Below, piece by piece: positions 18,365-59,213 of a DNA stretch of 64,000 nt (position 1 is the stretch's first letter; each line of letters opens with the position of its first letter). Origin of the DNA: Acutalibacteraceae bacterium (GTDB lineage: Bacteria; Bacillota; Clostridia; Oscillospirales; Acutalibacteraceae); assembly GCA_045531265.1 (NCBI GenBank), contig JAZSDP010000078.1:27610-91609 (forward strand), in the 5' to 3' direction. The notes beneath the pieces are model-generated. The model had not been told where the DNA came from. It worked only from the letters and a program-made list of their open reading frames with translations, and did no database searches. The translations under genes and the position numbers were made by a program.

Positions 18365-18394
18365 TTGACTTTATTGATTTTGTAATGATATACT
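18365..18394 (+). promoter_or_regulatory. sigma-A-type promoter candidate for the 2,434-aa surface protein gene
   Basis: The elements are TTGACT (18365-18370), an 18-nt spacer and TGATATACT (TATACT at 18389-18394). The AATGATATACT string is identical to the one in the giant-gene promoter. Confidence 0.55.
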
Positions 18395-18578
18395 GATACT
18401 AACTAAAAGTGACTCTTTATGCCCTTTTGGGGTTTCGGTATGCCGTAAAACGGTCAGGTCAGGGGCCGGGCAGGCTGATTTTTCAAGGGAAAAAGTGTAT
18501 CACAGTGAATTTCGTTTTTACGGCGAAGAGCCGTTTTATGAAATAAACAGGTTAATTTTTATTAAGGAGGAAATCTTA

Positions 18579-25883: not shown

Positions 25884-25908
25884 CACTAAATCGGAACATT
25901 TAAACTCA

Positions 25909-25942
25909 GAAGACACACTCCGTTCGGGGTGTGTCTTTTTTG
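25909..25942 (+). terminator. rho-independent terminator between the two large genes
   Basis: The stem gaagacacactcc / ggggtgtgtctt (about 12 bp) has a gttc loop and is followed by TTTTTT (25936-25941). Confidence 0.85.
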
Positions 25943-26083
25943 TGTATTGATTTTGTTTGTAAGGGTAGCAGGAGCTGAAAATGTACAATACGATGATCAA
26001 AATCATATGTTTATTCTGATAATTCAATATATTGTGCACTCAAAATTTGCTATAACTATATACTGATGATTCCTCATATATGG

Positions 26084-26112
26084 CTGAAAACCTTTATTTA
26101 TAAGGTTTTCAG
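26084..26112. promoter_or_regulatory. perfect 11-bp inverted repeat upstream of the giant-gene promoter (candidate operator)
   Basis: The repeat ctgaaaacctt-tatttat-aaggttttcag is not followed by a T-run and lies about 80 nt upstream of the -35 element. Confidence 0.35.
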
Positions 26113-26191
26113 AGCCACAAGTAAAACTTAACAAAATAAAAACACGGCATATATGCAATATGTAGAATTAAAAAAAAATTAAGAAATCGTA

Positions 26192-26220
26192 TTGAAAAAT
26201 TTGACTTCAAATGATATACT
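26192..26220 (+). promoter_or_regulatory. sigma-A-type promoter candidate for the giant gene
   Basis: TTGAAA (26192-26197), a 17-nt spacer and an extended -10 TGATATACT (TATACT at 26215-26220) are followed by the palindrome acctata-gt-tataggt at the predicted transcript 5' end. Confidence 0.6.
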
Positions 26221-26340
26221 ACCTATAGTTATAGGTGTCTCTATGGGCATTTTGCACCCTTTTTTAGGGTTCAGCTCGGTATTTATATAGGGAATCCTAT
26301 TTATAACATACATATTCTTTCATATAAGGAGGAAAATTTT

Positions 26341-44300: not shown

Positions 44301-47300
44301 AACAACTAAGGTAGACGGTGCAGATGTTGTCTACACAGTAACACCTGTTTACACAACAACTCAGGCTACCAAGGCTGTATATGACTTTGCTTGGGGTATG
44401 GACGCTATCGAAGGCGACGATGACGAAAGCAAGGTACTCAAGCAGGCTCACAAGTTTGTTGATATCATCGCTGCATTCCTGCAGCCCGTAGACTTCATCC
44501 TTGAAGTTCTCCTTGCAGGCGGTACAAATACCGGTGATGCAGAAAATGCTAAGTCAATCAGTGCATTTGATGAAATCAATATCATGGGCGGCTCAGGCTA
44601 CAACTATGCGATTATCCCGCTTCTTGAAACCCTCGGCGTACCCAACAGCATGATTCTCACTCAGGCTCAGTACGAAGAAAAGATTAAGACTGAAGGCACT
44701 CTCGCTCCCATCCTCGATATTCTTCTCGAGTATGTGATCGGCGGCCTCAACGCTCCTCTCTCCTTCGTAGCAGACCTTCTTACAAATCTCTTCTATACAG
44801 TAAGCCAGAACGGTCTTACAACAATCGTTTCCAACCTTATTGCTCCCGTATCTGAACTCGTAAGAGCTCTCGAAGATACTCTTCCCGTAGCAATCAAGAT
44901 CGACCTTACTCAGATCTTTGTTGAAGGCGGCGAAATCTTCAAGATTATGCTCGGTGACGATGTTGCAATCAACGGTGCAACAGTTGGTCTCGACCTGAAC
45001 CTTGATAACAATACAATCGAAGATCTCCTCTTCGGTGCAAACGGTGTTCTCAAGAATCTCGCTCCCGACCTTGTTATCAACTTCAACATCCGCGAATTCG
45101 TTCGTGCAGCAGTTGCAGTTGACGAAAACGGCGATATCATCTATGTAGATTCACTTGTTGATACTGATTACGATATCCTCACACCTGAAAACGTTGAATG
45201 GCGTGACCGTATCGTAGTTGACAGAGCAGACGCAGTTATCAACTTCCTTGACAGCATTCTTACAACAGAGACAATAAACAGTCTCCTCACAATGCTCGAG
45301 GTTGACCTTGACGAAATGCTCGGCGAAGATATGTCGTTCCTTGCTGATATCATCAACGATGCTATTGAAGCTCCCTCAACTCTTATCGATACAATAGTTA
45401 AGCTTCTCTCCACAGCTTACACTGTAGAAGACATTATGGTTCTTTATGATGAACTTACAGAAGCTGATTATAACTACGATAATGAAGTAGCTTCAAAGGA
45501 CGATGTAGCTCTTGTTCTTAACAAGCTTGATGCTGTTATCAACAACGCTATCGAGCCTCTCCTCGGTATCCTTTCAGGTATGGACAATATGCCCGCACTT
45601 GTAACAGATATCGCAGCAGCTATCGAAAACGGTGAAGCTGAAGCTACAATCGGCGGCGTTCTCGACTTCGTACTCGGTGATCTTATCTTCACTGATGAAA
45701 TCGTTAACACTGTATTCGGTCTTATTGTTGGTCTTCTTGGCTCAATGGATGCTAAGACATTCGACCTTATCAATAACCTCCTCGGCGAAATTCTCCACAT
45801 CAACCTTGATCCCGTTGAATTTGCACGTTCAATCGTTGCAGCAACAGGCGATACAAAGGTAGCAGACTATATCGCATCCTTCCCCGCAACTGAAGATACT
45901 GTTCTTACATGGGCAGATATCGCAGCTGCTAACAAGAAGCTTGTATACACCTACACAATCAAGGCAACTGAAGAAGGCGCTGAAGATAAGGTTGTAGAAG
46001 TATACTTCGATCTTGACAGAACAAACGAAACCGCTTACACAGCTGAAGACGGTGTAACTTACACCCTCAACAAGAAGATGGTTGAAAAAGACGGCGTTGC
46101 AACAGACGAGCAGGCAACCAAGGTTGTTATGACTCATAACTGGGGCGTTGATGCTGCAGCTGCAGCAGATAAGAAGGATGTATTCCTTGGCGCAATCCTT
46201 GAAATCCTTGCTCCCTTCGGTGCAGTTCTTGATTGGCTCTTCTGCGGTGAAGACATCGTTCTCGTTTACGAAGGTGTTACACTCCACGGCGGTAACGCTT
46301 ATGATAACGTTCTTGTTCCTCTTGTTAAGGCTCTCGGCGTTGAAATCGACACCGATGCCGAGCTTGATGCACAGAACAAGACTCATGCAGTTGACCGTGT
46401 TGAAGCACTCATTAACGGTATCTTCGCACTTGTTGACAAGCTTGCTGACAATCCCATCAACACAATCGTTGAGCTTGTAACAGGTCTCTCCTACTTCATC
46501 GCATCCGGTGGCGTAGCAGAAGCTGTTGAAGGCATTGCAGCTCCCATCTTCGGTCTTGTTTCAACTCTTGAAGCAATTGCTCCCATGTCAACAATCAACG
46601 AAATTATCGCTGAACTTGCTAAGGACGTTAAGCTTCCCGGCGACAAGCCTCTTACAATTGACAACATCATCAACATTGCAGGTGAAAACGGTGAAGGTCT
46701 TGTAGCTCTCATCAACAGTCTTATCGGTAAGATTGAAATTGAAGATGAAGCAGGTAACATCATTAACCTCAACCTCCTTCCCGATGACTTCTTCCTCCAG
46801 GTTGCACAGTACGGTGTAAACATTGAAACAGTTGCAGAAGTAACTGCTGAAATGATTGCAGGCGGCGTTGACTATCAGCCCGACAACAAGTACGTAACCG
46901 AGTGGTCAGTTGATAAGGCAGACGCTATTATGTATGTACTTTCAACTGTATGCTCCGACTCCTTCCTTAAGAGTCTCTGCTCACTTATGAACCAGCCTGA
47001 AGACAGCACCGTTGGCGGTATCCTCCTCGGTCTTGCAGGCAAACAGAACAATGTTGTTGATATTCTTGTAACACTTCTTACTGAATACACAGTAACATAC
47101 ACAGACTTCACACGTGCTCCGATTGAAAAGGAAGAAGTAACTCATACTGCTCCCATGACTGAAGAAAATCTTGAAGCTGCTCTTGCAGTTCTTGACAAGC
47201 TTATTCCTTCAGTAATCGGTCTCGTAGGTCTTGATGCAGACTCACTCCAGAGTCTCCTTGGTGAGCTTCTTGAAGGTCTCGATCTCGGTAATCTCCTTGC

Positions 47301-50300
47301 AGATCTCCTTGTTCCCCTTCTTGCAGGTCTCGACCTCGGTGAAATCCTCGGCTATGTTGAAGAACTTACTAACATCAGCGTTGACCTTTCACCTGAAGCA
47401 TTCACACACAACAAGTTCGGCTCCAAGCTTGCTGAATTCATCGGCAATGCTGAAACATGGGCTGACATTGAAGCTAAGTATCTCAACTACATTTATACTT
47501 ACGAATTAACCGATAAGGACGGCAACGTTGAAATCGGCGAAGACGGTAAGGCTAAGACAGCTGAATACTTCAGCATTAAGTCTGACCTTGACGGTAAGAC
47601 TGTAACCGTTGGCGAAGGCGACGATGCTAAGGAAGTTAAACTTTCCAAGAAGCTTGTTGAAACAACAGTTAAGGCTGAAGACGGTACAGAAAACAAGGTT
47701 AATGTACATGATACCAAGATGAAGTCCGACTTCGATTGGGAACTTGGCCTCACAGGTGTTGACGCATCCTTCGACGGCGTAATCGCTCTTGTATCCGACC
47801 TTCTCTATCCCGTTGACTTCGTACTCGGTCTCCTTCTCACAGGTGACAGAATTGAAGCACTTGAAGAAATCGGTATCACAGGCGGCCGCGGCTACAACTT
47901 CGCAATTATCCCGCTCCTTGAAGCATTTGGCGTAGAAGTAATCACAGAAGCTGAATATGTAGAGCAGGCTAAGACTAACGGTCACCTCAATTACATCCTT
48001 ACAGCTCTCTTCGGTAAGATTGAAGATGAACTTCTCGTATCACCCGTTAAGACTCTTCTTTCAATGCTTGCTAACCTCTTCTACCTTGTTGGCTCCAACG
48101 GAATCAACAATATTGCAGAAAACCTTCTCGGCTTTGCTAACTACCTTCTTGTAAAGGCTGAGCCCGTATTCAAGGTTGGTATCTCAATCGACCTTTCAGA
48201 AATGGGTCTTGTTGGCGGTAAGGTTCTCAAGACAACCTTCGATGCTGACGAAAACGGCAAGCCTATGCCTTATGTATCATCAATGGCAGCCGGTATCCGT
48301 GTAAATGTAAGTGCTGATGCACTCTCCAAGCTTCTCGGTGACCTTATTGCTGACCTCAAGCTTGTTGATATCGACGGCGACGGCGTAAATGATCCTCTCG
48401 GTCTTTCACTTGACCTTGACTTCACAGAGCTTGCAGCTAAGATGGCAGCAACAAATGAAGACGGCACAATCAAGAAGATTGCAACCTCTCAGATAACCAC
48501 TGAAGGTGCTCCTGCAACATGGTTCAATATTGAAGGTGATGTTGAAGATACCTTCACAACACTTATCGATACAATCCTTACAGATGAAAACGCATTCGCA
48601 CTTGCAAATCTCATCGAAAGCCTCCTTAAGGACGTTGACTTCAGCGGTATGGACGGCGTAGATGAAAACGGCGAAGCAAATGACGAAATCAATGTTAAGG
48701 GTATCCTTAACGACGTGCTCTACCAGAAGGACGGCATTAAGAAGGTTCTTGGTGCAGTAGTTCTCCTTCTCAGCGGTCAGTACACAGTTGTTAAGCCCGA
48801 TACAGCTTATAAGTTCCTTGGTATCCTCAGCTACTTCCTTGAAGGCGACGATACAGGCGATAAGCTCAACAATGCTATTGACAGACTCGATGCAATTATC
48901 GCTCGTGAAGTTCCCGAAATTCTCACAATGTTTATTGACGGCGACTCCGCAACCGGTATTCTCAAGTCACTTGTAGATGCTGCAGACGGTGCAACAGGCC
49001 TTGATGATATGCTTGATTCACTTCTCAAGGAACTTGCATTCACACCCGATAACTTTGCAGCTCTTATGGAAATGCTTGTTAAGGCTATTGCAGGCTTCCT
49101 TACTGCAGACCTTACAGGTACTCTCAATGACCTTCTCGGCATTGACCTTGCTCCTGCAGCATTCGCAACTGCAACAGGTAACGCTAAGCTTGTAGCTTAT
49201 GTTGAAAACGCTCTTGATGCAGATAACGAAGCTAAGGACGAACCCGCTGAACTCACTTGGGCAGACGTTTGGGCAGCTAACAGCACAGACGGTAAGGCAA
49301 ACGAATACGATTGGGGCGTAAATGACCAGAGCGGCTTCATCTCAGCAGTTCTCAGTCTCCTTATCCCGCTCAATCCTATTCTTGACTTCATCTTCTGTAA
49401 CGGCGCAATCGAGCTCCTTGACGGTTCAGTAAGACTTCCCGGCGGTGACGCTTATAATAAGGCTCTCATCCCGCTGTTCAAGGCTCTCGGCGTTGACCTT
49501 GCAACTGCAGAAACCACAACAGAAGCTCTTGATGCTCTTGTTGACGGTCTTATCGGTAACACAGGTCTCGTAGGCAAGCTTGCAGACGCTCCCTTCAGAA
49601 CAATTCTTGAACTTGTAGCAGGTCTCAGCTATCTCCTTGCAAACGATAACCTTGAACCCATCATCAGAAACATTGCAGCTCCCGTATTCTCAATCCTTGA
49701 TCTTCTTAAGGATGTAATCACAATGGATCAGATCGACGGTATCCTTGAAGGCTTCATCGGTATGAGCCTCACAGATATCATCGAAATCGGTAACAACGGC
49801 GGTGCTAACCTTGTTGACCTTGTAAACGGTCTTCTCGGCGGTATCGAAGTAAGAGATGAAAACGGAAAGCTCATCGACACTGTAGATGCACTTGACAGTG
49901 ACTTCTTCGTAGAACTCTCCAAGTATGCAATCGACGTAACAGATCCTGAGGGTCTTGTAGATCCCACAAATGTTGGCGAAGATGCAAACGCATGGACAGT
50001 AGACGCAGCAGAAACACTCATGTTCATCCTTGACAATGTTCTTGATGAAACATTCCTTAAGGTGCTTTGCGGTAAGATCGCTCCCGATGCAAGCGAAGAT
50101 GATATGCTCGTTGGCATCCTCACCTCACTTGCAGATAAGGAGATCGACCTTGTTGAAGTAATCCTTATGCTCCTTGAAAACTACACAATCAGATACAACA
50201 GATATCAGCAGACAACTCTCACCGGCGCTGCAGCAGATTACACAGCATTTGCTGATAACGCAGCAAAGGTTGAAGCAGCCCTTCCCAACGCTATCACAGC

Positions 50301-53300
50301 ACTTGATACACTTCTTGTATCAGTTCTCGGTATGCTTGGCACAGGCGATGACCTCGGTGCTCTTATCGATGGTCTTATTGCAGATGCTGATCTCGGTAAC
50401 CTTCTTATGAACCTCCTCGTTCCCGTACTCGCAGGTCTTGATCTCGATACAATCCTCGGTTATGTAAATGACCTTACAAACCTTGAGGTTGATATCGCAC
50501 CTCAGGCATTTGCAGATACTAAGTTCGGCTCCAAGCTCGGCGAATTCATCGGCGAAGCTGAAACATGGGCAGAGCTTGCTGCAGCTGCAGAATGGCAGCA
50601 GTATGTATACACATATGTTGTTAAGAACGAAGACGGTACCGATAAGATCGGTGAAGACGGTAAGGTAGTAACTGCTGAATACATCAGCAAGGACGGCACT
50701 CTTACCGAAGTTAACCTCGGCACTGAGAAAGAGCCTAATGTTGTTGCTCTTACAAAGGTTATGACAAATCTCACTGACCTTGAAGGTAAGAAGGCATACA
50801 CATATGGCGACGAAACTCTCTATCTTGCAGATAAGGAAGTAAAGGTTGCTGATGACAATACAGTAACAACAGTTATCAAGTCCGGCGAAGGCGACGCTGC
50901 TACAGAAGAAACTGTAACAATCGTTCCCGTTATGACTCACAAGACTCAGTTCGTTTCAACCTTCGATTGGAACATCAAGACTCTTGAAGATGCTGTTAAC
51001 TTCGCAGCTGACCTTCTTCTCCCGCTTGACGTTGTATTCAAGGTTCTCCTTGGCGGCAGCGAAATCATCGCTCTTGAAGACGGTGACACAATCAGACGTG
51101 CTGATATTCGCATCAAGGGCGGCTACGGCTACAACTATGCAATTCTCCCGCTTCTTGAAGCTCTCGGAGTAGATGCAATCAGCCAGTCCGAATACGATGC
51201 ACGTATCAACAGCGTATACCACGGCTCATCACTTAAGTACATCCTTGATGCAATCGTAGGCAGAGTTGACGAAATCCTTGCAACTCCCGTTCAGGAAGCT
51301 CTCGGTCTCTTCGCTAACCTCTTCTACTTCATCGGTTCAGAAGGCATCAACACCTTCGCTGCTAACCTCATCGCTCCCGTTCAGACTCTTCTTGAAGAAG
51401 TTTGTGACGTATATCCCATCTGCATTACCATCGACGGTAGCCAGATCGGTGTTGAAGGCGGTAAGATTATTGCAACAAGCTTTGATGCAGACTACGAAGC
51501 AGGTTCACTTGCAGAAGGCCTGAAGATTGACTTCAAGGCAGAGCACATCTCAGCTCTCCTTACAAACCTTCTCTCAGGTATTAAGATTAACGAGAAGCCT
51601 CTCGGCCTTACTCTCAACCTCAACTGGCTTGAGCTTGCAGCAGCAATGGCTAAGAGAGATGCAGAAGGTAAGATCATTTACACTGATTCTGCTATCGAAT
51701 ACGGTTATAAGAACACAACTGTTAACTCAACAGACCTTACAGCTCATAAGAATATTTCCGGTGATGCTGCAGCAACTCTTGTAACCCTTCTCAACACAAT
51801 TCTTTCAAATGAAAACGTTGCAGTTATCAAGAACCTTGTTAAGGATCTTCTTAAGGATGCTAACCTCGATGCAACAATCGAAAATCTCATCGACAACGTT
51901 CTCAGCGACAGAAATGCTATCATTAACCTTGTAGGTACTCTCGTTCTTGTTCTTACAGGCGAGCACGAAGTACGTGTAATGGATATGGTATTCAAGTTCC
52001 TCGGCGTAACTGACTACAATGTTGAAAACGCTGATACAGCAATTGCTTCCTTCGACAGACTTATCGGTAAGGCACTTCCCGTTGTTCTTGATATGTTTGC
52101 CGATACAAGCAAGCCTGAAGCAGAATGGACAATCCTTGAACAGATTGCCGCTTCCGGTGAAACAACACTTAAGGGTATTGCAGATTGGGCTCTCAACGAT
52201 CTTCTCTTCACAGACGATATGATGGCTACAATCACCGATGCACTCGTTGGTGCTCTTGCAGGCTTCCTTACAGAATCTCTTGCAGGTACTCTCGGCGATC
52301 TCCTCGGCGTTGACCTCAACCCCGTAGCCTTTGCACAGGCAACAGGTAACGCAGCTCTCATAGCTTATGTAACTGTTCCCGGCACAGGCACAGACGGTCT
52401 TGTAACATGGGCTGATGTTCTCGCAGCACACAGCACAACAACAACCGTTGACGGTAAGGAAGTAACAGAAATCGACAACGTATTCACAGGCGTTAATAAT
52501 AAGGATGCATTCCTTGATGCACTCTTCAGCCTGCTTACACCGCTCGATCCCGTACTCGGATTCCTCCTTCGCGGTTATGACCTTACAATCGGCGCAGGTC
52601 TCGGCGTAGACGATATCAAGCTCAAGGGTAACGACGGTTACTCCAATGCAATAAGCATTCTCTTCAAGGCTCTCGGCCTTGGCGAAATGGGCGCAACCTG
52701 GGTAGAAGCAACAGACGATATGAACGCTGTTGACGCTCTCAGACATACAATCGACTATGTATTTGCACTTGTTGATTCACTTTGCGCTAAGCCCTTCAAC
52801 ACAATCCTTGTTCTCCTCGGTAACCTCAGCTTCTTCGTAGCAAACGACGGTGTAGAGAAACTTATCAATAATCTCGTATCACCCGTTCTTTCACTCGTAG
52901 ATGCTCTCAGCGGTACAATCTCCAGAGCAGAACTTGATGCACTTCTCGTTTCACTTACTAAGAACGAAATGCTCACACTCAGCGGTATCCTCAATATCGC
53001 AGGTGACAACGGTGAAGCACTTGTAGAACTCCTCAACGGTATTATCCCCGGCTCCAAGGTTTACGAACCCATGAAGGATGCTGAAGGAAATATCCTTGTT
53101 GGCGAATATAAGGAATACACCAAGGAAGCTGTTGAAAATGATAAGAACAACACCTATGATGAAGTAGTGATTAAGGTTCTCGATGCTGACGGCAATCCCA
53201 AGAAGGATGACGAAGGCAACGAAATCACAAGAACTGCTTACTATAAGGTTGTTCACGTAATCAACGCACTTCCCGCAACCTTCTTCGTTGACCTTGCAAA

Positions 53301-56300
53301 GGCAGCAATTAAGGTTGATACACCCACAGGTCTTGTGGATCCCACTGATATCGGTAAGCCCGTTACTAAGTGGCATGTTGAAACCGGTGATACTCTCGTA
53401 TTCATCCTTTCAACCGTTCTTTCACAGGATGTTCTTGACATCCTCTCTAACCTCCTCGGTCTCACAGACGGTACAGTTAAGGATATCCTTAGCGGTCTCG
53501 TAGGTAAGGAAGAAGAGCTTCTTGATGTTCTCGTTTCACTTCTTGCTAAGTATCTTGTTGAATACAAGGCATATACACAGCCTGAACTCGATAAGATTAA
53601 TGTAACAACAGCTGAAACACATGATAACTTCAACGATATCGTTACAAATCTTGATGCTCTTATCCCGACAATTCTCAGCCTTGTAGAAATCGGCGGTAAG
53701 AAGTACGGCAGCCTTAACGAACTTATCAGCGGATTCATCACAGATGACATCGCAGATATGCTTGTAGGTATGATAGTTGAACTTCTCTCAGGTCTTCCCT
53801 CAGAGACAATCGACGAAATCCTCGGATATGTTAAGGAGCTTACAAACCTCAAGACTCTTGATATCAGCCCGAAGGCATTCGCAAATAACGACTTCGGTTC
53901 AAAGGTTAAGGCATTCTTCGAAGATGCTGCTGCAAAGGCAGGCACCACACTTGATAAGCTCACATGGGCTGAAGCTTGGGAAGCAACAAGCACAGTAGCT
54001 GACGATCCCGAAACAACTGATAAGGTTGAACGTAAATTCAACGGCTATGCTTGGGGCATTGAAGGTCTCAACGACCTTGTAGATCTCCTTTGCGACTTCA
54101 TCCAGCCTCTTGATCCTATCCTCCTCGTTCTTCTCGCAGGCGGTCAGGTAAGAGCTGACTTCGACGGTACAACCGTTGGCAGATCTATCAGTGCACTTGA
54201 TGAAATCAACATCATGGGCGGTATGGGTTATAACTACGCAATCATCCCGCTTCTTGAACTCCTCGGCGTTGACGCAATGAGTCAGGCAGCATATGATTCA
54301 GCAGTTAGCAACAACCACGGCAGTGCTCTCTACCCGATTCTTAACCAGCTTATCAGTACAGTTGAAAATGACATTCTCAAGTCACCCATCAACTGGCTTG
54401 CTAAGATTCTTGCAAATCTCACATATGTAATCGGCAATGATGATATCGGCACAATCGTTGATAATCTCCTTGCTCCCGTTAACCAGCTCATCGCTAAGGT
54501 TGACAAGGTATTCCCGATCGCTATCGACATCAACATAGGTGATATCGGTAACGAAACAGAATACAACAAGGTTGTAGACACCTACCTCGGCGTTGCACAT
54601 CCCGGTGTTGAGGCCGGTATCCACATCAGAGTTGAAGGCAAGGCTCTTGCAGATATGCTTACAGGTCTTCTTGAAGGCATTGAAATTGAAGGCAAGCCTC
54701 TTGGCATCAAGATTGATCTTGATTGGCTCAAGCTTGCAGCAATGGCAGGTGCTGATGCTGACAGCAATAAGAAGGTTGACTTCGAAACAACCAACTTCTC
54801 AACCAAGTATGATATTTACAACGGTGGTGCTTATAAGACCATCAAGGGTGACGCAGCTGACACCTTCGTAACTATCCTCAAGCTCGCACTCACTAAGGAA
54901 AATGTTGAAGCTATCCTTGGCGCACTCAATGTTGAACTTAGTCCCGAAATTAAGGATATTATCGACCAGATCGTTGAAGATCCCGCTAAGATTGTTGATA
55001 TCATTGCAAATCTCCTCGGCGGCAAGCTCGCTTACCAGCCGATCCAGAACAGACCTATTTCCGTAACAGGTGTTAACTACAACAGTTACTTCACCTTCAC
55101 AGAACAGAATGCAGATATCATTGCTAATAACCTTGATACTCTTCTTGTTCAGATTCTTGACCTTGCAGGCCTTGGCTCAATCAGACAGCTTCTCGGTCAG
55201 TTCATTAACAACGGAATGGTTAACCAGCTCCTTGACTTACTCGTAGGTCTCCTCGCAGGCGACTCCGTAGGACCTATCCTTAACACAATTGCAGGCATTG
55301 ACCTCGGCATTGAATTGCCGCTTACACTTCCCGCATTTGCAGCTAAGATCTCTGAACTCGCTAAGACAAGAGATTATCTTAAGGGTGCAGCAGCTCACCT
55401 TAATAAGGGTGTTGCAGCAGGCGGCGAAGATGCAACTTGGGCAAATGTAGGCTCCTTCCAGGATGCTAACGTTGATTGGAAGGTTAAGGACGGCGACCTC
55501 TACGGCTTCGTACAGGCTGTTGCAGGTATCCTTACACCGCTTAACGGTCTTCTTGAACTTCTCCTTATCGGCGAAGGCAAGTACCTTGACGTTCTTGGTG
55601 TTGTTAAGATCGGCGGCGGCAACGGTTACGACTACGGTATCATCCCGCTTCTTGAAGCATTCGGTCTCAAGTCAAGTGAAGTTAAGAATATCACAGAATA
55701 TAAGCAGGCTGTTGCTAAGGACGAAACTCAGCTTCTCGGCTATATCCTTAACAGAATCGCTTACTTCGCTGACGGTCTTCTTGACTCACCTGTAAATGAC
55801 CTTCTCACTATCCTCCCGAACCTTGCATATTACTTCTCCAACGAAGGTCTCCTTCTTACAGTGAAGAATCTGCTTGCTCCTGTTTACACCCTTGTAGACA
55901 CAATCACAAAGGTTCTCGGTGTTGATCTTGAAAGCTTCCTCAAGCTTGAAAAGCTTCTCAGCAATATCGATCTTGGTATCGTTGTATTCAACAACAAGTA
56001 TGATTTCAAGATTCCTGAAATTGATTGGCTCAAGCTTGCTGCACAGGGCGGCGATAAGGCTCAGGAAGTTTCAACTTCACGTTCAATCGCTGCAAACTCC
56101 TACACTAAGGAAATGCGTGCGGATGAATACCATGCATATACTCAGGCTAACCCGAATGCTCCTCATAAGAGCACTCAGAAGAACATCGTAGCAGATAAGG
56201 GCGATACACTCACACTTATCTTCACATGGCTGCTTGAAATGTTCGGCACTCAGCATAACAGAGACGCTCTCGTTAACTGGATTGTTGATGTATTTGAACT

Positions 56301-56697
56301 TAAAGCAGGTGCTAAGGAAACTGTTCGCTACGCTGTAAACGAACTGTTCAACAGAACAGCAGCTTATGACGTACCCGATATCATCGTTTCCGCACTCTTC
56401 GCAGCACTTGGTATGGCAATCGGTCTTGATGCTGCTATTACAGGCGATGTAATCACCGTACAGCAGATCTGGAAGGATCTCTTCGGCATCATCGGAAATA
56501 ACTCAGGCGACGGTTGTAAGTATGCAAGCATCGCTAAGGTTATGGAAGACCTGACCGGTGTCTGGGATGACACAATCGGTGACGATGAAGATCACGAAGA
56601 CGCAGTTGAAGATGCAGAAGAATCACTCAACTGGTTCCAGAGACTTATTAAGAAGATTAAGGAATTCTTCCAGAAGATTTTCGGTATCTTTAAATAA
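26341..56697 (+). CDS. giant acidic modular protein (10,118 aa) of unknown function, with an N-terminal signal/anchor and a C-terminal hydrophobic segment plus basic amphipathic helix
   Basis: A single stop-free frame spans 30,357 nt. AAGGAGG (26326-26332) lies 8 nt before the ATG. The N-terminus is MKVGKKVLSCVLAIIMIVSSVSVCFGVLGAG. Codon usage matches the neighbouring genes. The gene has its own promoter and a terminator at 56747-56776. The internal motif periodicity is only coherent in this frame. Confidence 0.93.
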   Translation: MKVGKKVLSCVLAIIMIVSSVSVCFGVLGAGNTIDNLMNRIELNHEALADFILEVETLEAKLAAAQTQALKEEIGAQLTEAKKRIPQQANASQWKVEVDSASGSWTWVARAYAEAAKVVVQQKDKHTYYGIYAEILSQVDAARAGRTTALTKAQYDEILKYFAFGETEEVAGGAYATPKVITLNIGAGFDVLKWAPDYNEIPTDAAELQLYNSWVKFGMSTVGDENNGLVGINEADITFDMQNQNSEMIAQALDVVKQSIIKFIALSEEGLTETNPETNEEITYLPWFTTNFAELAANDPALLDKTIMQISEKIVEFDTAIATAQVGNTEDIWNSYVSPHITGKKTWAEVNRWYETEIVGYIAKAYATQFKAQFEAAFAAADALGEAATGDQLYVYYLEVQDILAALDETVAYVNGESINIADQIIDAFDGGREYYNNILTRRNTLGYHTASKFSTEWADRYNEIYNFNLVDSKASVAMGHVWEKCDGTCGTTCDGKGNGQEDYVEGTDCTYGWVDANGDGIFTDDEKTTVAHCIHVDYNNALEFYTKAAALVADFEAKVFPLVTNDAGVIAFDRIATETLNEKSWNAFYATYQKANLNLNGAKYIDMKAKMDAFMGSIRLSGGMSYNVIKTYHDEFVALGYTECKDLSTNPATKDIFEEIFGKAGMTPYDNFINDLKRRAAVRIYEQLERIATYYGEGGNNVTYYNFESILAAEAALEAQQGALFTFLRAKPAYNPDADQFFDIVRDEEGNEISRTQKEGVIIYDIDDDLGAKYEEVSPYTVRAQEFKDNLALMRMEANLNPLEEFSWQGDKTILAYLFDRYNNANNYSGSYYEYLWVSGKGKLDYDAISDLIAEVGLGLGGKDTATLMDEVVKKFDKMILSKDLGSLLDALTANSATGEGLLGTWDITYTFNNPDGSTTTRTKGDKVENVREMLINLIMGLLYGGSLQNLLMSLYGLLGNVIMDLDMDIPVLGQVGAKLPEYLRGAIPLMPHWFTENWNGYSCNQTGVRWYKWFDGSLLGSSYNYENALRVLAQAPRHDSGKDTKSFWDSENRPNFGTYAGLPEDAWETYEPDEIWHVRNNVDLFKSLAAAACGLAAPLGVILCANDATLRAKSDILSIELNAIAHNAGDPLYDRLFIPLYELLGITQYSTSNPYGYRTGSEMKNATAIAGYLEGGDTTPYVQNYGYDMWSYVLTPLLNWMETKLFVNPLETILGLLPNLFCAIEYNQILPKIKNIALEFKLDLFGGISLYTLKVWDLLAPLLDNLGLQLDKGLDGVINMLLQVTKTNKATYDAEMAKPKEEQKAFLMKSVLDAKGNKIYDLYNKDGDVIQYNVDVAALTEQYPDGLPNEQYTSERKEVYVDKDGNYYWKLGLLAQTLFGTGSKGCNEGYLEMLNFNKKSGHGTVQLYVPVNRIVSMGTLTQKTVYGTNSNWTLYHINADSGDVLLALFRWLMNDGVVPKLLPLLNGLLGGGEATEEGGSSVSIIDTIVPIIDGQADTVIAILISLLNTYDVGYFNYVDTYKNLVDNLSGEKLEYTNFGSKDADNDGQPDFVIGKYLSESLADMATADVNTTDEQKLAKVDLAISKLDGLINTVVPSIIPVIMPMLDDLLKGDIGDIVKPLLEPLNDIQKGDTLADVVADILVQDGVMQLLAELLVGTGEQKEETLEDGSKVPAFQKDADGNYVLDENGQKIPVMDTGLLGGILGGGMLANLLPALADMDIDIRPPAFYDAAVAAGCTGISDWILGCYNDAIAQGADFKGDYHNMGWEWMKAPGENHKWFNVAEDATAEQKVDEFFNLLGTLLAPLNPILFLIFSGQDLTLLDELTIEGGQGYQSAMTLLIESLGFGKVKIAGTNYTASMSRSDYLAFVHGSTGGTDETKIPKDGRFWATAHSPLAPLFTALRAFLVGDDETGALGLLESPLTALLKMIPNLAYLLYSYETDELDETGAKVKTNNLAQAAKNLISPVLSVLNIIDPILSRALELDIESLLDSFLNVENMLNDLISGLVDGSDLDTGEDIVVTKFVDFGALAVYGGKANKDAISHTTGVGGTFTEFTGSPAQTLITLVRSIMTDDLIDSFVTMFMDYYATTEQGQQITDENREDWARVRDIVLALSVRAKTPATFENGNYNGTGVDLIVGLVVDLFTDYVPGQGVEMFYQKMADEGYSDAIMEKYGIQHVPYQWENITKDENDDLLFTPDDVEDTLDSFDAVIRKAAPDVIGILTSQGILDLSSLGIELDGEATTLYGVLTQLVEDFLFTDEIMATVANLLASLLGGGMVGDLLPLIKDAGIDITAVSIYKRTKTNSALREFMSYNITGGVDANGQITVDGEKRDITWADIADAHGYQAYEYDEHGNVVMDGDDAKLAYTKKLSVDKDGKPVYELDEDGEIKLDAQGNKIQAQEDDLDKPTMKLITSIYVQAKKDGKFVYTYKGKDAEGNSADLEYLSAFANLESFAVQVFEEDGTTPKKDENGKEVWTKYDLKPVYTDEEIPGAWSWDFDDVESRGYKNHIYGKLSYFVDSVWEIIGGLEDILEALFFGADTNKAVKLFDTLNIEGTDGFEDTLLPLLRGFGLDAILSNLNNSPATDADGNALVDPKGDGSVYTMLEELNDERKVTYGDENVNAIPANLVKGNAGMRRSLGTWRNAATNEIEAEAFKNFAIGRDWFAEEQNGTIYFDQAAGYDMATFLKVFLNYVLYFVEILASYPISTLMSALPTLAYFIVGDGLNEIVSNLLRFLTVLTDRLAPILAIDVNDIGAGLVDMLGTNEWGTFQEIFKFYVNEDGQKVYDEITYDENGKVVTVQKPAAEKNISLTETLLSFVANIKIDLDSDGVQESTITRFINAEAEKEAWALINANTDDKGVVNKDKLEEARQMRTAAVTAWLESVVALGEPFKGDYTDANGVDHNVPAKYHGYVKIDAYNGQISVPKNDMFMFILDFVFENTTLQEVLGDLLGYDITDENGTDADLLDELLTNVFRNPDYLVDLIVALFTTYTVAPNKDIPFIDIDEYHYNFYDEDGQTTYQDILPQIQAGTYAGSEISRVKTAYAIDNLDKLVGTVLNLFKKDLVKEGGLFDGIFTEEDDISLSVAVNGLLEDLLFTDDMINDLLGMLVGLLSGEGVGDIIGIVTDILESAAGIDISTAAFANNDTLESIIMKDGKAQTWSEIAEANKQYEYKYETIDEDGETVLKDGEPVYGTYFDKSATASSAVVDADGDGDEDDTVTLIPVYNQKQAQNADKEYEYYYFASEEDKTNDIRTPYFDKEQNKTEYVIPATDDAEEQKFVLTAVMVDDTDSQKTAVKFDKQWNIVPELADDATAEQKAAASKQARDNFVTVLWDVLEPLSPVLELLFTGRNLEIYGEITIRGFDGYEGFILPLINALAAPVYTKADGVTPYLDTNKYYPTQEAFELAVYGADKAPGGEDENADNTQVLLQSILDALLALVDSLCDRPISTIATLLPYLARFLESKGIDTILSNLLSPITAITDMIKNVYNLDIMGLIKGLLQGLAADMNKDAAAQTAAGFIEEKIDEAAEANANAGVALAAEEDDILNNDSGIDYSKYTFMEIIWDILEAVQIDLGDGKKLAISDLINDQFFVKLAACAWYDDEALGYVMIKGIDYADGEDEDINDSKVTNEQRDTDYYVDRETVLLFVLDNLLFQESVRDLIGGLIGDMEFTDEALTELKNNKDESKVLDTDYLLPVLLYGVFMDGEALERLLIDLLSWYDVEYAPERVDKTTPNSTLPEVDWDATGLNEAELENLPKQLDDLVAAVLPLLLELLPTFGVDLGIDLGGATDIKHIVENLIGSLFTDTVDEKTGEVKNGLATTLFTLLVKLFGGSNLDDILSMVYELTGGDEHAINLTLAYFKDSSTAIAKYFNEYKDAEGKTKAINTWAEAYEAFKVKVDFDAEKNFSYAEEDVNKENKIFDKNDGDYLYAVDDKGNIVHTYAQDAEGKAIPATDKGTTAVCPDCGETFYITAGDGKVLEGEDAANVVAYADGEFAYEYQWDIKLTGTNSFGVKDYTTALNLLGDIVTPLVPVLKLLLVEDGDLVILDGVTISAGDGYDRFVIPVAEMLGIEIENDKYAVAEFTNAEFGDFIVDGIVKLINKIVSSPIQTIIDLLPNLAYFITSNGLAQAVEQMLAPLLTLVDMVNDISGAKITLKNGTELVALDVYELLVGLLKDVIDLKGAKTAGEIITNLLTADGLEDLIMGLVKNEDGTTKLGFLDGLFADIVAKTVGITDVETARYFGSYVQGGHRMVKGVYATRANTVLQLISELILAENGLIFEILDLAGLDLNDPANATIKTVIDGLTGDNRYCILEVLLNYFNHYDVEGTIIDYLSFEAKEFAYETYTTDSTLSARKVRRAIKKLDQAVLALVPELLPLLEEIEFLKGALASVKDPDKGYEGVTIQKVVEAILSDLAFNDETMTMLVGTIIGLLGGEGLSGTLASLSPVLSKLVDVNIAPAAVADNAQTAGATALAQLIGEAIAGTEAARSSSYVDDDGLTVSTVREATWADIAEYYADNAYFYIVENVGEEYVLNNKTGDKVPVFNTETNEDGVKVPVFAEGEEAPDNAEDLFVSEDGYLMRKVYTYSIEKHFDKNEYEDGKVITIDGEEVTLYTRAIATDKDGNIIWADAEALKPTFQRVMDGEKYGFNWTYTVADDEATADVDESKTYSGVVYQNDATDADGFAEVEIDGKKVEVAVEEAFVMSGTQVLGATETDWGFDDADTFEEKKDVFLGELYGIVKAVEPVVDFLFHGEDITIQSTVNGNTVDAITLKGGEGYRYALYPLLQALAADQMGNSLVSGVDYGALKGTVGTLEAIVDGVFNVVENLAAGPVEYILTLLPSLSYFIKSDGIRLFVENLASPVFALLDVAEPAVGALLDDLLGGLLSPLVGDYMPAEYVNMEGRKVDDNGTPDDTTDDFKVYTLDEILHIAGKDGTNLVAILNNLVGGLIVKTEEGEEIEPITILPANFFADYVAYAVEIGSSFGQKMFYDLEVIKAGGKFGGNVGDTIAIPQADYTEDLKEYYTIVGDTRYSVSSWKVDIADSLVYLLQSVASADLLGVLAGDDHEEKVAKNDLIAIILDNLIKGNNNGLTIAEILVSLFEGYTVKYVPLNGIYIPIDHTGMTDAADIPVSLDNVILEALPVILPLLAGENVEEGSLMDTLTTALADLGENENAIKALVDGLINSFLTDDLVRGIVEMLVGILGNETIDMVLGLVKIGDHNLTAPEFKAQIDAHFAGKADYAAALAAIDSIIGEYGSWAEVAKANTKYAYTYVIKEATATAAAELGTYYAVSDKLGGTYQEIDGKEYLLTKKASDVKNDKGEVIGSVHETAVKFDEALTFGVDGADDKLTALINAFTVLLEPLTEVLQLVLQGKTLTLLSSNGKYVADSFEDIYGAETGQSNGELPDDDRDTADVGVIMGDGFIELRGSKGYDEGLLALAEAIFGQIKGTELEDKIPSGAEFNAYTDIEDILGAVVNIIMALVEGLENGPITFLADHLAGLLYFLASDNVNNLVNNVLALANGLLEVLEPLTGKDNIIDLLGMLGVDLSILEINKLLEMLTNLIRAPKDFEVTKAEDGSYTYVRDEKTVAVTTEEIKTKEVEKDGAKVTVEYVTVDTGLDLTIDLAMLKDLVAALGEYAVIDSLRTSANIGLATNNAGEYVNKDGQVIEGDAITTGKLTTVVGCRAHFIDGLLTFALSDNIIGKLLVKDETDPDNILNDLIDALTAEDAADGLIKFLNQLTSKYLVEYTVLAALDEELALTKLYTYYADSVNAPEGAHKRTIKKTDAEKTIDNLNNLVGPILELVGMGNLEDLVGGLVFTDDMVNMLVGLLAGLLPSLEGGDIANILDIVANVLGEEIDLSAATYAENAVLAPFFADVEASAEDGVITWADVAAHYTKYVYTYTIPADPEVEDSKPETVTVYAAEGETVYTTEDGKQYAITPVYEQKADKDGNLVYTTGDAEIIATKDYTIKTENGVTTATTKVDGADVVYTVTPVYTTTQATKAVYDFAWGMDAIEGDDDESKVLKQAHKFVDIIAAFLQPVDFILEVLLAGGTNTGDAENAKSISAFDEINIMGGSGYNYAIIPLLETLGVPNSMILTQAQYEEKIKTEGTLAPILDILLEYVIGGLNAPLSFVADLLTNLFYTVSQNGLTTIVSNLIAPVSELVRALEDTLPVAIKIDLTQIFVEGGEIFKIMLGDDVAINGATVGLDLNLDNNTIEDLLFGANGVLKNLAPDLVINFNIREFVRAAVAVDENGDIIYVDSLVDTDYDILTPENVEWRDRIVVDRADAVINFLDSILTTETINSLLTMLEVDLDEMLGEDMSFLADIINDAIEAPSTLIDTIVKLLSTAYTVEDIMVLYDELTEADYNYDNEVASKDDVALVLNKLDAVINNAIEPLLGILSGMDNMPALVTDIAAAIENGEAEATIGGVLDFVLGDLIFTDEIVNTVFGLIVGLLGSMDAKTFDLINNLLGEILHINLDPVEFARSIVAATGDTKVADYIASFPATEDTVLTWADIAAANKKLVYTYTIKATEEGAEDKVVEVYFDLDRTNETAYTAEDGVTYTLNKKMVEKDGVATDEQATKVVMTHNWGVDAAAAADKKDVFLGAILEILAPFGAVLDWLFCGEDIVLVYEGVTLHGGNAYDNVLVPLVKALGVEIDTDAELDAQNKTHAVDRVEALINGIFALVDKLADNPINTIVELVTGLSYFIASGGVAEAVEGIAAPIFGLVSTLEAIAPMSTINEIIAELAKDVKLPGDKPLTIDNIINIAGENGEGLVALINSLIGKIEIEDEAGNIINLNLLPDDFFLQVAQYGVNIETVAEVTAEMIAGGVDYQPDNKYVTEWSVDKADAIMYVLSTVCSDSFLKSLCSLMNQPEDSTVGGILLGLAGKQNNVVDILVTLLTEYTVTYTDFTRAPIEKEEVTHTAPMTEENLEAALAVLDKLIPSVIGLVGLDADSLQSLLGELLEGLDLGNLLADLLVPLLAGLDLGEILGYVEELTNISVDLSPEAFTHNKFGSKLAEFIGNAETWADIEAKYLNYIYTYELTDKDGNVEIGEDGKAKTAEYFSIKSDLDGKTVTVGEGDDAKEVKLSKKLVETTVKAEDGTENKVNVHDTKMKSDFDWELGLTGVDASFDGVIALVSDLLYPVDFVLGLLLTGDRIEALEEIGITGGRGYNFAIIPLLEAFGVEVITEAEYVEQAKTNGHLNYILTALFGKIEDELLVSPVKTLLSMLANLFYLVGSNGINNIAENLLGFANYLLVKAEPVFKVGISIDLSEMGLVGGKVLKTTFDADENGKPMPYVSSMAAGIRVNVSADALSKLLGDLIADLKLVDIDGDGVNDPLGLSLDLDFTELAAKMAATNEDGTIKKIATSQITTEGAPATWFNIEGDVEDTFTTLIDTILTDENAFALANLIESLLKDVDFSGMDGVDENGEANDEINVKGILNDVLYQKDGIKKVLGAVVLLLSGQYTVVKPDTAYKFLGILSYFLEGDDTGDKLNNAIDRLDAIIAREVPEILTMFIDGDSATGILKSLVDAADGATGLDDMLDSLLKELAFTPDNFAALMEMLVKAIAGFLTADLTGTLNDLLGIDLAPAAFATATGNAKLVAYVENALDADNEAKDEPAELTWADVWAANSTDGKANEYDWGVNDQSGFISAVLSLLIPLNPILDFIFCNGAIELLDGSVRLPGGDAYNKALIPLFKALGVDLATAETTTEALDALVDGLIGNTGLVGKLADAPFRTILELVAGLSYLLANDNLEPIIRNIAAPVFSILDLLKDVITMDQIDGILEGFIGMSLTDIIEIGNNGGANLVDLVNGLLGGIEVRDENGKLIDTVDALDSDFFVELSKYAIDVTDPEGLVDPTNVGEDANAWTVDAAETLMFILDNVLDETFLKVLCGKIAPDASEDDMLVGILTSLADKEIDLVEVILMLLENYTIRYNRYQQTTLTGAAADYTAFADNAAKVEAALPNAITALDTLLVSVLGMLGTGDDLGALIDGLIADADLGNLLMNLLVPVLAGLDLDTILGYVNDLTNLEVDIAPQAFADTKFGSKLGEFIGEAETWAELAAAAEWQQYVYTYVVKNEDGTDKIGEDGKVVTAEYISKDGTLTEVNLGTEKEPNVVALTKVMTNLTDLEGKKAYTYGDETLYLADKEVKVADDNTVTTVIKSGEGDAATEETVTIVPVMTHKTQFVSTFDWNIKTLEDAVNFAADLLLPLDVVFKVLLGGSEIIALEDGDTIRRADIRIKGGYGYNYAILPLLEALGVDAISQSEYDARINSVYHGSSLKYILDAIVGRVDEILATPVQEALGLFANLFYFIGSEGINTFAANLIAPVQTLLEEVCDVYPICITIDGSQIGVEGGKIIATSFDADYEAGSLAEGLKIDFKAEHISALLTNLLSGIKINEKPLGLTLNLNWLELAAAMAKRDAEGKIIYTDSAIEYGYKNTTVNSTDLTAHKNISGDAAATLVTLLNTILSNENVAVIKNLVKDLLKDANLDATIENLIDNVLSDRNAIINLVGTLVLVLTGEHEVRVMDMVFKFLGVTDYNVENADTAIASFDRLIGKALPVVLDMFADTSKPEAEWTILEQIAASGETTLKGIADWALNDLLFTDDMMATITDALVGALAGFLTESLAGTLGDLLGVDLNPVAFAQATGNAALIAYVTVPGTGTDGLVTWADVLAAHSTTTTVDGKEVTEIDNVFTGVNNKDAFLDALFSLLTPLDPVLGFLLRGYDLTIGAGLGVDDIKLKGNDGYSNAISILFKALGLGEMGATWVEATDDMNAVDALRHTIDYVFALVDSLCAKPFNTILVLLGNLSFFVANDGVEKLINNLVSPVLSLVDALSGTISRAELDALLVSLTKNEMLTLSGILNIAGDNGEALVELLNGIIPGSKVYEPMKDAEGNILVGEYKEYTKEAVENDKNNTYDEVVIKVLDADGNPKKDDEGNEITRTAYYKVVHVINALPATFFVDLAKAAIKVDTPTGLVDPTDIGKPVTKWHVETGDTLVFILSTVLSQDVLDILSNLLGLTDGTVKDILSGLVGKEEELLDVLVSLLAKYLVEYKAYTQPELDKINVTTAETHDNFNDIVTNLDALIPTILSLVEIGGKKYGSLNELISGFITDDIADMLVGMIVELLSGLPSETIDEILGYVKELTNLKTLDISPKAFANNDFGSKVKAFFEDAAAKAGTTLDKLTWAEAWEATSTVADDPETTDKVERKFNGYAWGIEGLNDLVDLLCDFIQPLDPILLVLLAGGQVRADFDGTTVGRSISALDEINIMGGMGYNYAIIPLLELLGVDAMSQAAYDSAVSNNHGSALYPILNQLISTVENDILKSPINWLAKILANLTYVIGNDDIGTIVDNLLAPVNQLIAKVDKVFPIAIDINIGDIGNETEYNKVVDTYLGVAHPGVEAGIHIRVEGKALADMLTGLLEGIEIEGKPLGIKIDLDWLKLAAMAGADADSNKKVDFETTNFSTKYDIYNGGAYKTIKGDAADTFVTILKLALTKENVEAILGALNVELSPEIKDIIDQIVEDPAKIVDIIANLLGGKLAYQPIQNRPISVTGVNYNSYFTFTEQNADIIANNLDTLLVQILDLAGLGSIRQLLGQFINNGMVNQLLDLLVGLLAGDSVGPILNTIAGIDLGIELPLTLPAFAAKISELAKTRDYLKGAAAHLNKGVAAGGEDATWANVGSFQDANVDWKVKDGDLYGFVQAVAGILTPLNGLLELLLIGEGKYLDVLGVVKIGGGNGYDYGIIPLLEAFGLKSSEVKNITEYKQAVAKDETQLLGYILNRIAYFADGLLDSPVNDLLTILPNLAYYFSNEGLLLTVKNLLAPVYTLVDTITKVLGVDLESFLKLEKLLSNIDLGIVVFNNKYDFKIPEIDWLKLAAQGGDKAQEVSTSRSIAANSYTKEMRADEYHAYTQANPNAPHKSTQKNIVADKGDTLTLIFTWLLEMFGTQHNRDALVNWIVDVFELKAGAKETVRYAVNELFNRTAAYDVPDIIVSALFAALGMAIGLDAAITGDVITVQQIWKDLFGIIGNNSGDGCKYASIAKVMEDLTGVWDDTIGDDEDHEDAVEDAEESLNWFQRLIKKIKEFFQKIFGIFK
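29150..55900 (+). repeat. array of ~15 divergent protein-level modules (about 465-810 aa each) inside the giant ORF
   Basis: Each module has four recurring elements. The first is a Gly/Leu-rich LFTDD-type segment. The second is a TWA[DE][IV] motif followed by a variable, Y/T/E/D/G-rich insert. The third is LLxPLxPxLxxLLxG...[GA]GxGYxxx[IL]xPLxxALG. The fourth is PxxTxLxxLPNLxYFxxSxG...NLxAPV. The GxGY cores start near 29731, 31831, 34012, 36436, 38515, 40678, 42643, 44587, 46288, 47881, 49441, 51118, 52627, 54217 and 55612. Confidence 0.8.
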
Positions 56698-56746: not shown

Positions 56747-56776
56747 CCCCCACTCATCACGAGTGGGGGCGTTTTT
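56747..56776 (+). terminator. rho-independent terminator after the giant gene
   Basis: A 9-bp stem (cccccactc / gagtggggg) with an atcac loop is followed by cgTTTTTa. Confidence 0.85.
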
Positions 56777-59190: not shown

Positions 59191-59213
59191 ATACAAGCTC
59201 TCCTTTACTTTTT

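Follow-up and report, generated by a model that had tools for sequence, protein, structure and literature searches.

Amphipathic C-terminal modules, one per family, in a conserved pair of giant secreted proteins of gut Clostridia

A stretch of 64,000 nucleotides from an Acutalibacteraceae bacterium (assembly GCA_045531265.1, contig JAZSDP010000078.1, positions 27,610 to 91,609 of the forward strand), hereafter referred to as the window, encodes two neighbouring giant proteins, p1 (2,434 aa) and p2 (10,118 aa), whose genes jointly fill about 38 kb of the genome. The analysis of their C-termini revealed two undescribed, family-specific amphipathic modules, carried by a conserved gene pair and representing, most plausibly, in-plane membrane anchors. 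No paper describing either tail was found in the literature search, and a tail of this kind is not described in the literature on the giant genes of Omnitrophota and Clostridia. The initial annotation of the window had proposed that the two neighbours share a terminal helix and, with it, a common membrane-insertion, anchoring or sorting signal. As detailed below, the two tails exist as described, both being terminal, cationic and strongly amphipathic, and the resemblance between them does not demonstrate a single shared signal. Both C-termini can be regarded as real gene ends, since terminator-like hairpins lie 3' of both stop codons (25908..25939, +, with a 14-bp stem and a T-run, after p1; 56747..56769, +, after p2).

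The two tails and their families

The C-terminus of p1 (...HKCECSCHRNNFWGGFFRFFQKIIKLFTGKASCCADPDSRI, followed by the stop codon) harbors a module composed of three parts, all on the forward strand: a CxCxCH motif (CECSCH, 25764..25781), invariant across the p1 family; an amphipathic helix, FWGGFFRFFQKIIKLFT (25791..25841), with a hydrophobic moment (muH) of 0.62-0.70; and a terminal segment of the form G-x3-CC-x-PD-x-R-[IY] (25842..25880), in which the CC pair is invariant. The Cys clusters that had been noticed around the helix are thus confirmed, in the form CxCxCH...CC, and are absent from p2. When all the 2,445 windows of 18 aa were scanned, the top hydrophobic moment (0.70) fell on this tail. 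A model of the last 140 aa, obtained with AlphaFold2 (AF2) from 40 sequences, reached a mean predicted local distance difference test (pLDDT) of 88 and consists of a beta-sandwich followed by a helix (model residues 111-127) at about 90, the Cys-bearing flanks of the helix being at about 76.

The distribution of this module was assessed by an exhaustive hmmsearch with a 45-column tail profile against 1.84 billion representatives, which returned 95 matches at E<=1e-3, including 52 at E<=1e-10. True tails account for 93 of the 95 (counted as clusters), all of them located at the extreme C-terminus, mostly in proteins of 2,200-2,600 aa, and their consensus is CxCxCH-[KR]-x2-[FIL]-W-[GP]-x-[IL]-F-R-F-F-[HQ]-K-I-I-K-[LM]-[FI]-T-G-x3-C-C-x2-P-[DS]-x2-Y. 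A word-indexed search with the 44-aa tail alone gave no candidates, owing to a limitation of the index and not to biology, given that P0024 and the 93 clusters were recovered by other searches. Among the 39 full-length members that were aligned (identity to p1 of 25-75%), CxCxCH, W, R, G and CC are some of the residues that never change; in the helix itself, the W, the R and the subsequent G do not vary, and hardly any variation affects two F and one K. Over 25-aa windows, conservation in the family is highest in the signal peptide and in the tail (mean identity 0.82 and 0.75, respectively), the protein-wide mean being 0.41. CxCxCH occurs in 65 of the 6,707 ORFs (open reading frames) of related loci, and in 63 of them it lies within the p1 tail module.

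The tail of p2 belongs to a unique C-terminal domain (56275..56694, +) with no copy within the repeats that make up the rest of the protein, the internal repeat homology stopping about 140 aa short of the C-terminus. Along this domain, and always on the forward strand, there are a hydrophobic helix, DIIVSALFAALGMAIGLDAAITG (56377..56445, p2 residues 10013-10035); a conserved block, IAKVMEDLTGVWDDTIG (56530..56595), which ranks second in conservation among the windows of the domain; an acidic run, DDTIGDDEDHEDAVEDAEE (56566..56622), embedded in the 24-aa window that has the lowest net charge (-12) in the protein; and the terminal amphipathic basic helix, SLNWFQRLIKKIKEFFQKIFGIFK (56623..56694), with the stop codon directly after it. 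The hydrophobic, acidic and basic stretches quoted in the initial annotation were therefore all found in place. The tail has the top hydrophobic moment (muH 0.80) among the 10,101 windows of 18 aa scanned and, with a net charge of +5, it is joint-highest (three windows tie) among 10,095 windows; the most acidic and the joint-most-basic windows of p2 adjoin each other, both within the last 50 residues. Two half-repeats, WFQRLIKKI and FFQKIFGIF, compose the tail, as seen in the hhalign comparison.

A search with the last 300 aa of p2 as query retrieved 23 metagenomic fragments or fragments of metagenome-assembled genomes (MAGs) from Ruminococcus sp. and Clostridia, and 22 of them, 44-66% identical to the query, were kept as genuine homologues; the remaining one (P0023) looks chimeric. 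The family consensus of the tail, LNWFQRLIKKIKEFFQKIF[GS]IFK, is almost unchanged among the homologues reaching the C-terminus, the tail is strictly terminal in all 21 homologues with an aligned C-terminus, and it is the most conserved window of its domain (mean identity 0.84 vs 0.58 for the domain). When the p2 C-terminal alignment was compared with metagenomes, the homologue at locus L068 was confirmed among the matches listed, the rest being chance pattern matches. For the last 300 aa, AF2 (24 sequences, mean pLDDT 62) predicted the final 100 residues as helical, with a packing that is not confident, and the terminal helix corresponds to model residues 279-298.

Projection on helical wheels, as the initial annotation had advised, disclosed in both helices an unbroken face of about 180 degrees made of F/W/I/L, opposite K/R/Q/G. 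Both proteins are very acidic, and in each of them it is the tail that holds the most basic window (jointly so in p2); both tails are under strong purifying selection, few other parts of their families being as well conserved. The C-termini of 1,088 ORFs (120 aa or longer) from the window and from 1.38 Mb of related loci were surveyed as well: p2 has the most amphipathic one, followed, almost without exception, by the tails of the p1 family. A separate observation from this survey concerns an N-terminally truncated ORF of 463 aa (L040, 1-1392), unrelated to p1 and p2 and located 5' of a p1 homologue, whose C-terminus, ...KITSLIVSFMRWLTAIFDAIRGLFNK, is strongly amphipathic too (muH 0.64).

Neither protein carries a classic anchor, in agreement with what had been annotated. 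LPXTG-like motifs were not detected by regular expression near the C-terminus of p1 or p2, the last such strings being at residue 1615 and 3480, respectively, and a hydrophobic span with a short basic tail of the sortase type is absent from both ends, where K/R/Q recur every 3-4 residues. Across the whole of p1 and p2, Pfam disclosed no match to SLH, CWB2, LysM, GW or SH3b; its only matches are Flg_new and CarboxypepD_reg/Big-like domains in p1, with none in p2, and none covers either tail. Likewise, with both tails as queries, NCBIfam gave nothing relevant at E<=10 (PEP-CTERM, GlyGly-CTERM, PGF-CTERM and others), and a PDB sequence search gave nothing. Foldseek, run on the C-terminal model of p1, matched the sandwich only (to CnaB, SpyCatcher and carboxypeptidase D domains) and left the tail unmatched. 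The statement that the tails escape standard annotation thus stands, as far as Pfam, NCBIfam and PDB are concerned.

The degree of relatedness between the two tails is a different matter. The pentapeptide FFQKI does occur in both proteins of the window, and this part of the initial annotation holds; the extension to one shared signal was not supported. In the p1 family, FFQKI is present in 11 of the 93 tails, FFHKI in 40, and other variants in the rest. The hhalign comparison of the two tails aligned just nine columns, with a probability of 13-25%, and the searches with hidden Markov models (HMMs) of one tail against the other family were not significant: the p1-tail HMM found its best site in p2 (10,118 aa) at residues 10109-10117, with a score of -5.9 bits, and for 80 of the 85 p1 relatives the p2-tail HMM placed its best match no more than 25 aa from the C-terminal end, never scoring above 8.6 bits. 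As for the pentapeptide, p1 and p2 share 44 five-residue words in total, a rate that predicts 0.0012 shared words between the segments of the last 30 aa, and shuffles preserving the composition of both helices gave P = 0.008 for a shared 5-mer; since these chance figures are post hoc, the exact match has to be considered only moderately significant. Moreover, the Cys/His flanks are confined to p1-type proteins and the acidic run to p2. In conclusion, the two tails belong to the same physicochemical class; they are family-specific modules and cannot be demonstrated to be homologous.

The gene pair, its leaders and its neighbourhood

In order to place the tails in a genomic context, one genome per GTDB species was scanned, and this yielded 210 relatives of p1, for which 66 loci were examined; nearly all of these come from Acutalibacteraceae, Oscillospiraceae or gut MAGs labelled "Clostridia", the closest relative (locus L002) being 77% identical to p1. 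A p2 homologue lies downstream of the p1 homologue in 41 of the 52 loci with at least 2 kb of downstream sequence, so that the two genes form a conserved pair. These p2 homologues begin about 400-460 nt past the p1 stop codon and stay open to the end of the locus, with lengths exceeding 3,000 aa. In the other 11 cases (L004, L005, L013, L015, L018, L021, L036, L046, L052, L062 and L064), p1-type genes keep the tail without an adjacent p2, and some MAGs contain two p1 paralogues, one with p2 and one without it (e.g., L013 and L040). Since these stand-alone paralogues keep the tail, the p1 tail does not need an adjacent p2.

Other arrangements of p1-type genes were also observed. At locus L046, a secreted, paralogue-like protein of 1,560 aa (18809-23488) is encoded next after the p1 homologue; it possesses a p1-like signal peptide, Flg_new repeats and many Cys modules, and it ends with CGCICHKESVLMKLIYKILNFFWSLFKIGKSCACGNVHW, so that the order CxCxCH, amphipathic helix and Cys is found again in a protein of another architecture. 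On the 9,267-nt contig of L001, the p1 homologue is split into two gene calls (2,201 aa and 222 aa), and a second ORF with a p1-type tail, in convergent orientation, is located at the contig end beside a Y1 transposase gene; this suggests paralogy or a rearrangement at this locus. The viral contigs scanned for both tails contained no relatives, and a plasmid tblastn with both C-termini gave no match; the pair is therefore not borne by the phages or plasmids of those collections.

As regards the proteins themselves, the p1 ORF (18495..25883, +) was assigned to the ATG at 18579 because the N-termini of the family agree. The resulting protein (18579..25883, +), whose net charge is -167, comprises Flg_new repeats, repeated Cys modules, the beta-sandwich (CarboxypepD_reg/CnaB-like, 25491..25712, +; PF13620, E 3.6e-8; AF2 pLDDT 94-98) and the C-terminal tail module. 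Its signal peptide, MKNQFKKSLSLIMAVLMVLSCWVWVAPTKAEA (18579..18674, +), comes first in conservation among the 25-aa windows of the family, with ...LSCWVWVAP.KAEA invariant in it, and a scan of the whole protein disclosed no hydrophobic segment besides it. The p2 ORF (26341..56697, +) encodes a secreted protein without any Pfam domain, rich in Leu, Ala and Asp and very acidic (net charge -949), made up of at least ten divergent repeats of roughly 550-1000 aa each, with GxGYxYxIIPLLEAxG and (I/L)TWAD(I/V) as recurring landmarks.

At the N-terminus of p2, a signal or anchor sequence, MKVGKKVLSCVLAIIMIVSSVSVCFGVLGA (26341..26430, +), is nearly invariant among 41 homologues, and stays so even at about 27% overall identity. 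A clear AxA cleavage site is not seen in this signal. The conservation of the signal peptides of both families may indicate a specialised targeting or, in p2, a retained N-terminal anchor. Lipoprotein anchoring of p2 was rejected, since many homologues have Ser or Thr in place of the Cys of this region.

The regions upstream of the two genes are conserved as well. That of p1 (18365..18578, +) includes a promoter (TTGACT and the extended -10 ATGATATACT) and a 5' leader of about 185 nt with two covarying hairpins, and it is conserved at the nucleotide level in 30-40 loci/species, even though the p1 proteins are only 25-77% identical. The invariant elements of the leader are ACTAAAAGTGACTCT, the hairpin CGGTC-AGGTCAGG-GRCYG and the hairpin ACGGC...GCCGT; this second hairpin is followed by a TTTTA U-run just 5' of the ribosome-binding site. 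In the alignment, 95.8% of the cells of the two hairpins are paired, vs 31-55% for slid controls; four compensatory pairs were counted, both hairpins showing compensatory changes, and none of 500 shuffles reached the observed value. A search of Rfam with the leaders gave nothing at E<=0.1, the two matches at E 0.12-0.14 being at chance level, far below the gathering scores and both outside the leader. The p1 leader is a candidate new cis-regulatory RNA, whose second hairpin looks like an attenuator.

A region upstream of p2 (26040..26340, +), with promoter-like sites at 26192-26229, is conserved across 42 loci. The leaders of p1 and p2 have in common an extended -10, AATGATATACT, the element GTG(A/T)CTCT..ATG and a small GC hairpin at the transcript start; the sharing of the extended -10 and of the GTG(A/T)CTCT start suggests a common regulation, and the two genes probably share a regulator, judging from these motifs. 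The possibility that p1 and p2 form an operon was rejected, given the strong terminator and the separate promoter-like sites existing between the two genes.

In the window, the pair is preceded by the glycogen genes glgB/C/D/A and followed by a class II aldolase gene; at the other loci, the flanking genes vary and are unrelated to these. A sorting or processing enzyme (sortase-like or exosortase-like) was not found near the pair, either here or at the related loci, so that the co-occurring processing enzyme for which the initial annotation had suggested to look is not encoded beside these genes, and an adjacent sorting enzyme was discarded on account of the identity of the neighbours. Further downstream, the reverse strand (58321-60086) carries a pair of adjacent paralogous ORFs (304 and 290 aa), similar to each other and with N-terminal hydrophobic segments.

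Possible roles of the tails

The preferred reading, put forward tentatively and with a confidence a little short of even, is that the tails are in-plane membrane anchors resembling that of penicillin-binding protein 5 (PBP5), possibly with a metal clasp in p1. According to this reading, p1 and p2 would be exported through Sec via their N-terminal signal peptides, and the last ~20 residues would then hold each protein at the cell, with the terminal helix lying in the membrane interface; in p1, the invariant CxCxCH and CC bracketing the helix might form a metal (zinc-type) clasp that fixes a small terminal module, and in p2, the helix would be preceded by an acidic spacer. Several findings are consistent with it. 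Both proteins have an extreme C-terminal amphipathic helix with a continuous apolar face, the hydrophobic moments (0.62-0.80) are above the 0.43 of the PBP5 anchor, which has been established by experiment, and both carry Sec signal peptides, the one transmembrane (TM) candidate of p2 scoring as non-TM on a rough scale. The basic charge, the strictly terminal position and the conservation of the tails, the helices predicted by AF2, the absence of the known anchors and the tails of the stand-alone p1 paralogues speak for this reading as well. Other observations weigh against it: the mean identity of the p2 tail (0.84) and the invariant residues of p1 exceed the usual needs of simple lipid binding; an in-plane helix of about 20 residues is a weak tether for a protein of 1.1 MDa; an anionic membrane would repel the acidic run that adjoins the p2 helix; the Cys clusters could have an entirely different chemical role; and AF2 gave the p2 tail a low confidence, from a shallow alignment of 24 sequences.

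A second explanation and the main rival, which can be considered possible although it is not the expected one, is that the tails are specific docking or recognition peptides instead of lipid anchors, each bound by a partner in the assembly of a p1-p2 surface structure. The partner might be the other protein of the pair, a receptor in the membrane, or a factor for sorting or processing whose gene lies at another place in the genome. The tails are near-invariant in families that have diverged to 25-60% identity, and an unusual degree of conservation is also seen in both families at the signal peptide, in a "book-end" pattern that recalls proteins with YSIRK and LPXTG. The adjacency of p1 and p2 in most of the informative loci, the conserved promoter/leader regions with common motifs, and the fact that the best site of each tail HMM in the other family is the tail of that family point in the same direction. 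Nevertheless, no candidate for a partner or an enzyme is conserved beside the genes, and a direct helix-helix pairing would be electrostatically unfavourable, because both helices are cationic. In addition, the p1 paralogues lacking an adjacent p2 keep the tail, and no co-variation of the two tails is visible, with p1 varying between Q and H and p2 keeping Q/A/N.

A third explanation is that the resemblance is coincidental and that the two tails perform unrelated jobs without any common signal, p1 ending, for instance, with a metal-binding cap and p2 with an oligomerisation helix. The short and improbable hhalign alignment, the negative or low HMM scores, the minority status of FFQKI in the p1 family and the reciprocal absence of the Cys/His flanks and of the acidic run all agree with it. 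This explanation appears unlikely, however, when it is considered that both tails are terminal, highly conserved and the most amphipathic and most basic segments of proteins encoded by syntenic, similarly regulated genes, and that the top amphipathic C-termini in the survey belong almost exclusively to these two families.

A broader and equally doubtful proposal is that signal peptide and tail together constitute an unrecognised, lineage-specific surface sorting/anchoring system of Acutalibacteraceae and Oscillospiraceae, with the CxCxCH-helix-CC plan in the p1 type and the acidic run plus double WFQ/FFQ helix in p2. In this case, a giant surface structure of two components, a beta-rich protein of ~2,400 aa and a helical one of ~10,000 aa, would be fixed to the cell by a dedicated factor whose gene lies elsewhere, or through Cys clusters modified by a metal or a lipid, with the shared structured 5' leader controlling both genes.

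The idea that p2 spans the membrane near its C-terminus through DIIVSALFAALGMAIGLDAAITG (56377..56445), with the last 83 residues in the cytoplasm and the helix on the inner leaflet, is very improbable. Basic amphipathic C-terminal helices are typical inner-leaflet targeting sequences (as in MinD and FtsA), and this stretch, with a mean Kyte-Doolittle value of 1.7-2.1, contains the second hydrophobicity peak of p2 (2.08) after the signal peptide; yet comparable hydrophobic peaks and helices are common all along the protein, the hydrophobic core is only 16 residues long with a conserved Asp at both bounds, and a simple, rough sum on the Hessa scale gives +2.3 kcal/mol, vs -1.8 for the signal peptide. 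The corresponding segments of the homologues range from +0.6 to +5.4 on the same sum and accept polar substitutions (E, Q and H) inside the segment, the charges flanking it on the would-be cytoplasmic side are acidic, and p1 has no such segment. The stretch is not clearly a membrane segment, and DIIVSALFAALGMAIGLDAAITG is probably a buried helix of the unique ~140-aa C-terminal domain of p2 instead of a TM span. Finally, a released peptide of the antimicrobial type, with an anionic pro-piece and a cationic helix, was set aside as a speculation with no supporting evidence.

Relation to known systems

The groups harboring the pair, Acutalibacteraceae and Oscillospiraceae, are abundant gut Clostridia, mostly uncultured, for which few anchoring rules beyond sortase and SLH are at hand. 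The two modules can be searched for as CxCxCH-x4-W-G-x-IFRFF[HQ]KIIKLFTG-x3-CC-x-PD (p1 type) and LNWFQRLIKKIKEFFQKIF[GS]IFK (p2 type). If they are anchors, they would explain how such giants are retained at the cell, improve the prediction of localisation and the annotation of hundreds of MAG proteins labelled as hypothetical, and serve in anaerobes as short, portable tags for display.

Amphipathic anchors of the in-plane kind (IPM anchors) form an established class, whose first described member is that of PBP5 (Sapay et al. 2006, PMC1564421). The likeness to this protein (DacA, a low-molecular-weight PBP of E. coli) covers several features: it is exported through Sec, its anchor consists of the last ~18-20 residues without a TM span, and the amphipathic helix combines an aromatic/aliphatic face with basic residues; moreover, its tail and the p1 segment NNFWGGFFRFFQKIIKLFTG have in common the pattern NF[FW]G...KII...IKL.F. 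On the other hand, the passenger is a DD-carboxypeptidase in PBP5 and a repeat protein of 2,434 or 10,118 aa here, and, since Pfam disclosed no Peptidase_S11 (DD-carboxypeptidase) domain in p1 or p2, these are not members of the low-molecular-weight PBPs. Their tails are also more amphipathic and far more conserved, with Cys/His flanks added in p1 and an acidic run in p2, and no family relationship at the sequence level has been shown. If the tails were merely PBP5-like helices, they would be a useful annotation without conceptual surprise.

The p1 module invites a second comparison, with the zinc-stabilised LITAF/SIMPLE-like domain. The motifs of LITAF form a zinc finger of the CxxC type. The monotopic anchor of LITAF is described as a hydrophobic helix with Cys-rich zinc motifs at its flanks, and its metal site as required for membrane association (PMC5095921). 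What p1 would share with it is a C-terminal helix of a single leaflet bracketed by Cys/His-rich motifs; LITAF, however, is eukaryotic, sits on the cytoplasmic face and has a hydrophobic insert of 22 residues, whereas the insert of p1 is amphipathic. The flanks differ too, being CxCxCH and CC in p1, where Pfam gave no zf-LITAF-like match, and p2 is devoid of Cys flanks. If it is an anchor, the p1 tail with its bracketed helix would be a bacterial, extracytoplasmic counterpart of the zinc-clasped monotopic anchors.

With LPXTG, PEP-CTERM, GlyGly-CTERM and PGF-CTERM proteins, p1 and p2 have in common the combination of a conserved C-terminal element and a conserved signal peptide on large secreted surface proteins; unlike these tripartite domains, they do not follow the order of signature motif, TM helix and basic tail, and their helix is amphipathic. 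The giants of the Hodor megaplasmid were rejected as a match, representing a different system with S-layer/MBG domains and sortases. An ecological analogue is offered by Apilactobacillus kunkeei, even though it belongs to another lineage, with no sequence relationship, and its giants have C-terminal SH3b-like/DUF5776 beta domains in place of a single amphipathic helix: in this bacterium, the consecutive genes Giant1-5 encode secreted proteins of 3,000-8,000 aa with signal peptides and alpha-helical repeats, whose conserved, positively charged C-terminal end has been proposed to attach them to the negatively charged envelope (PMC12863079).

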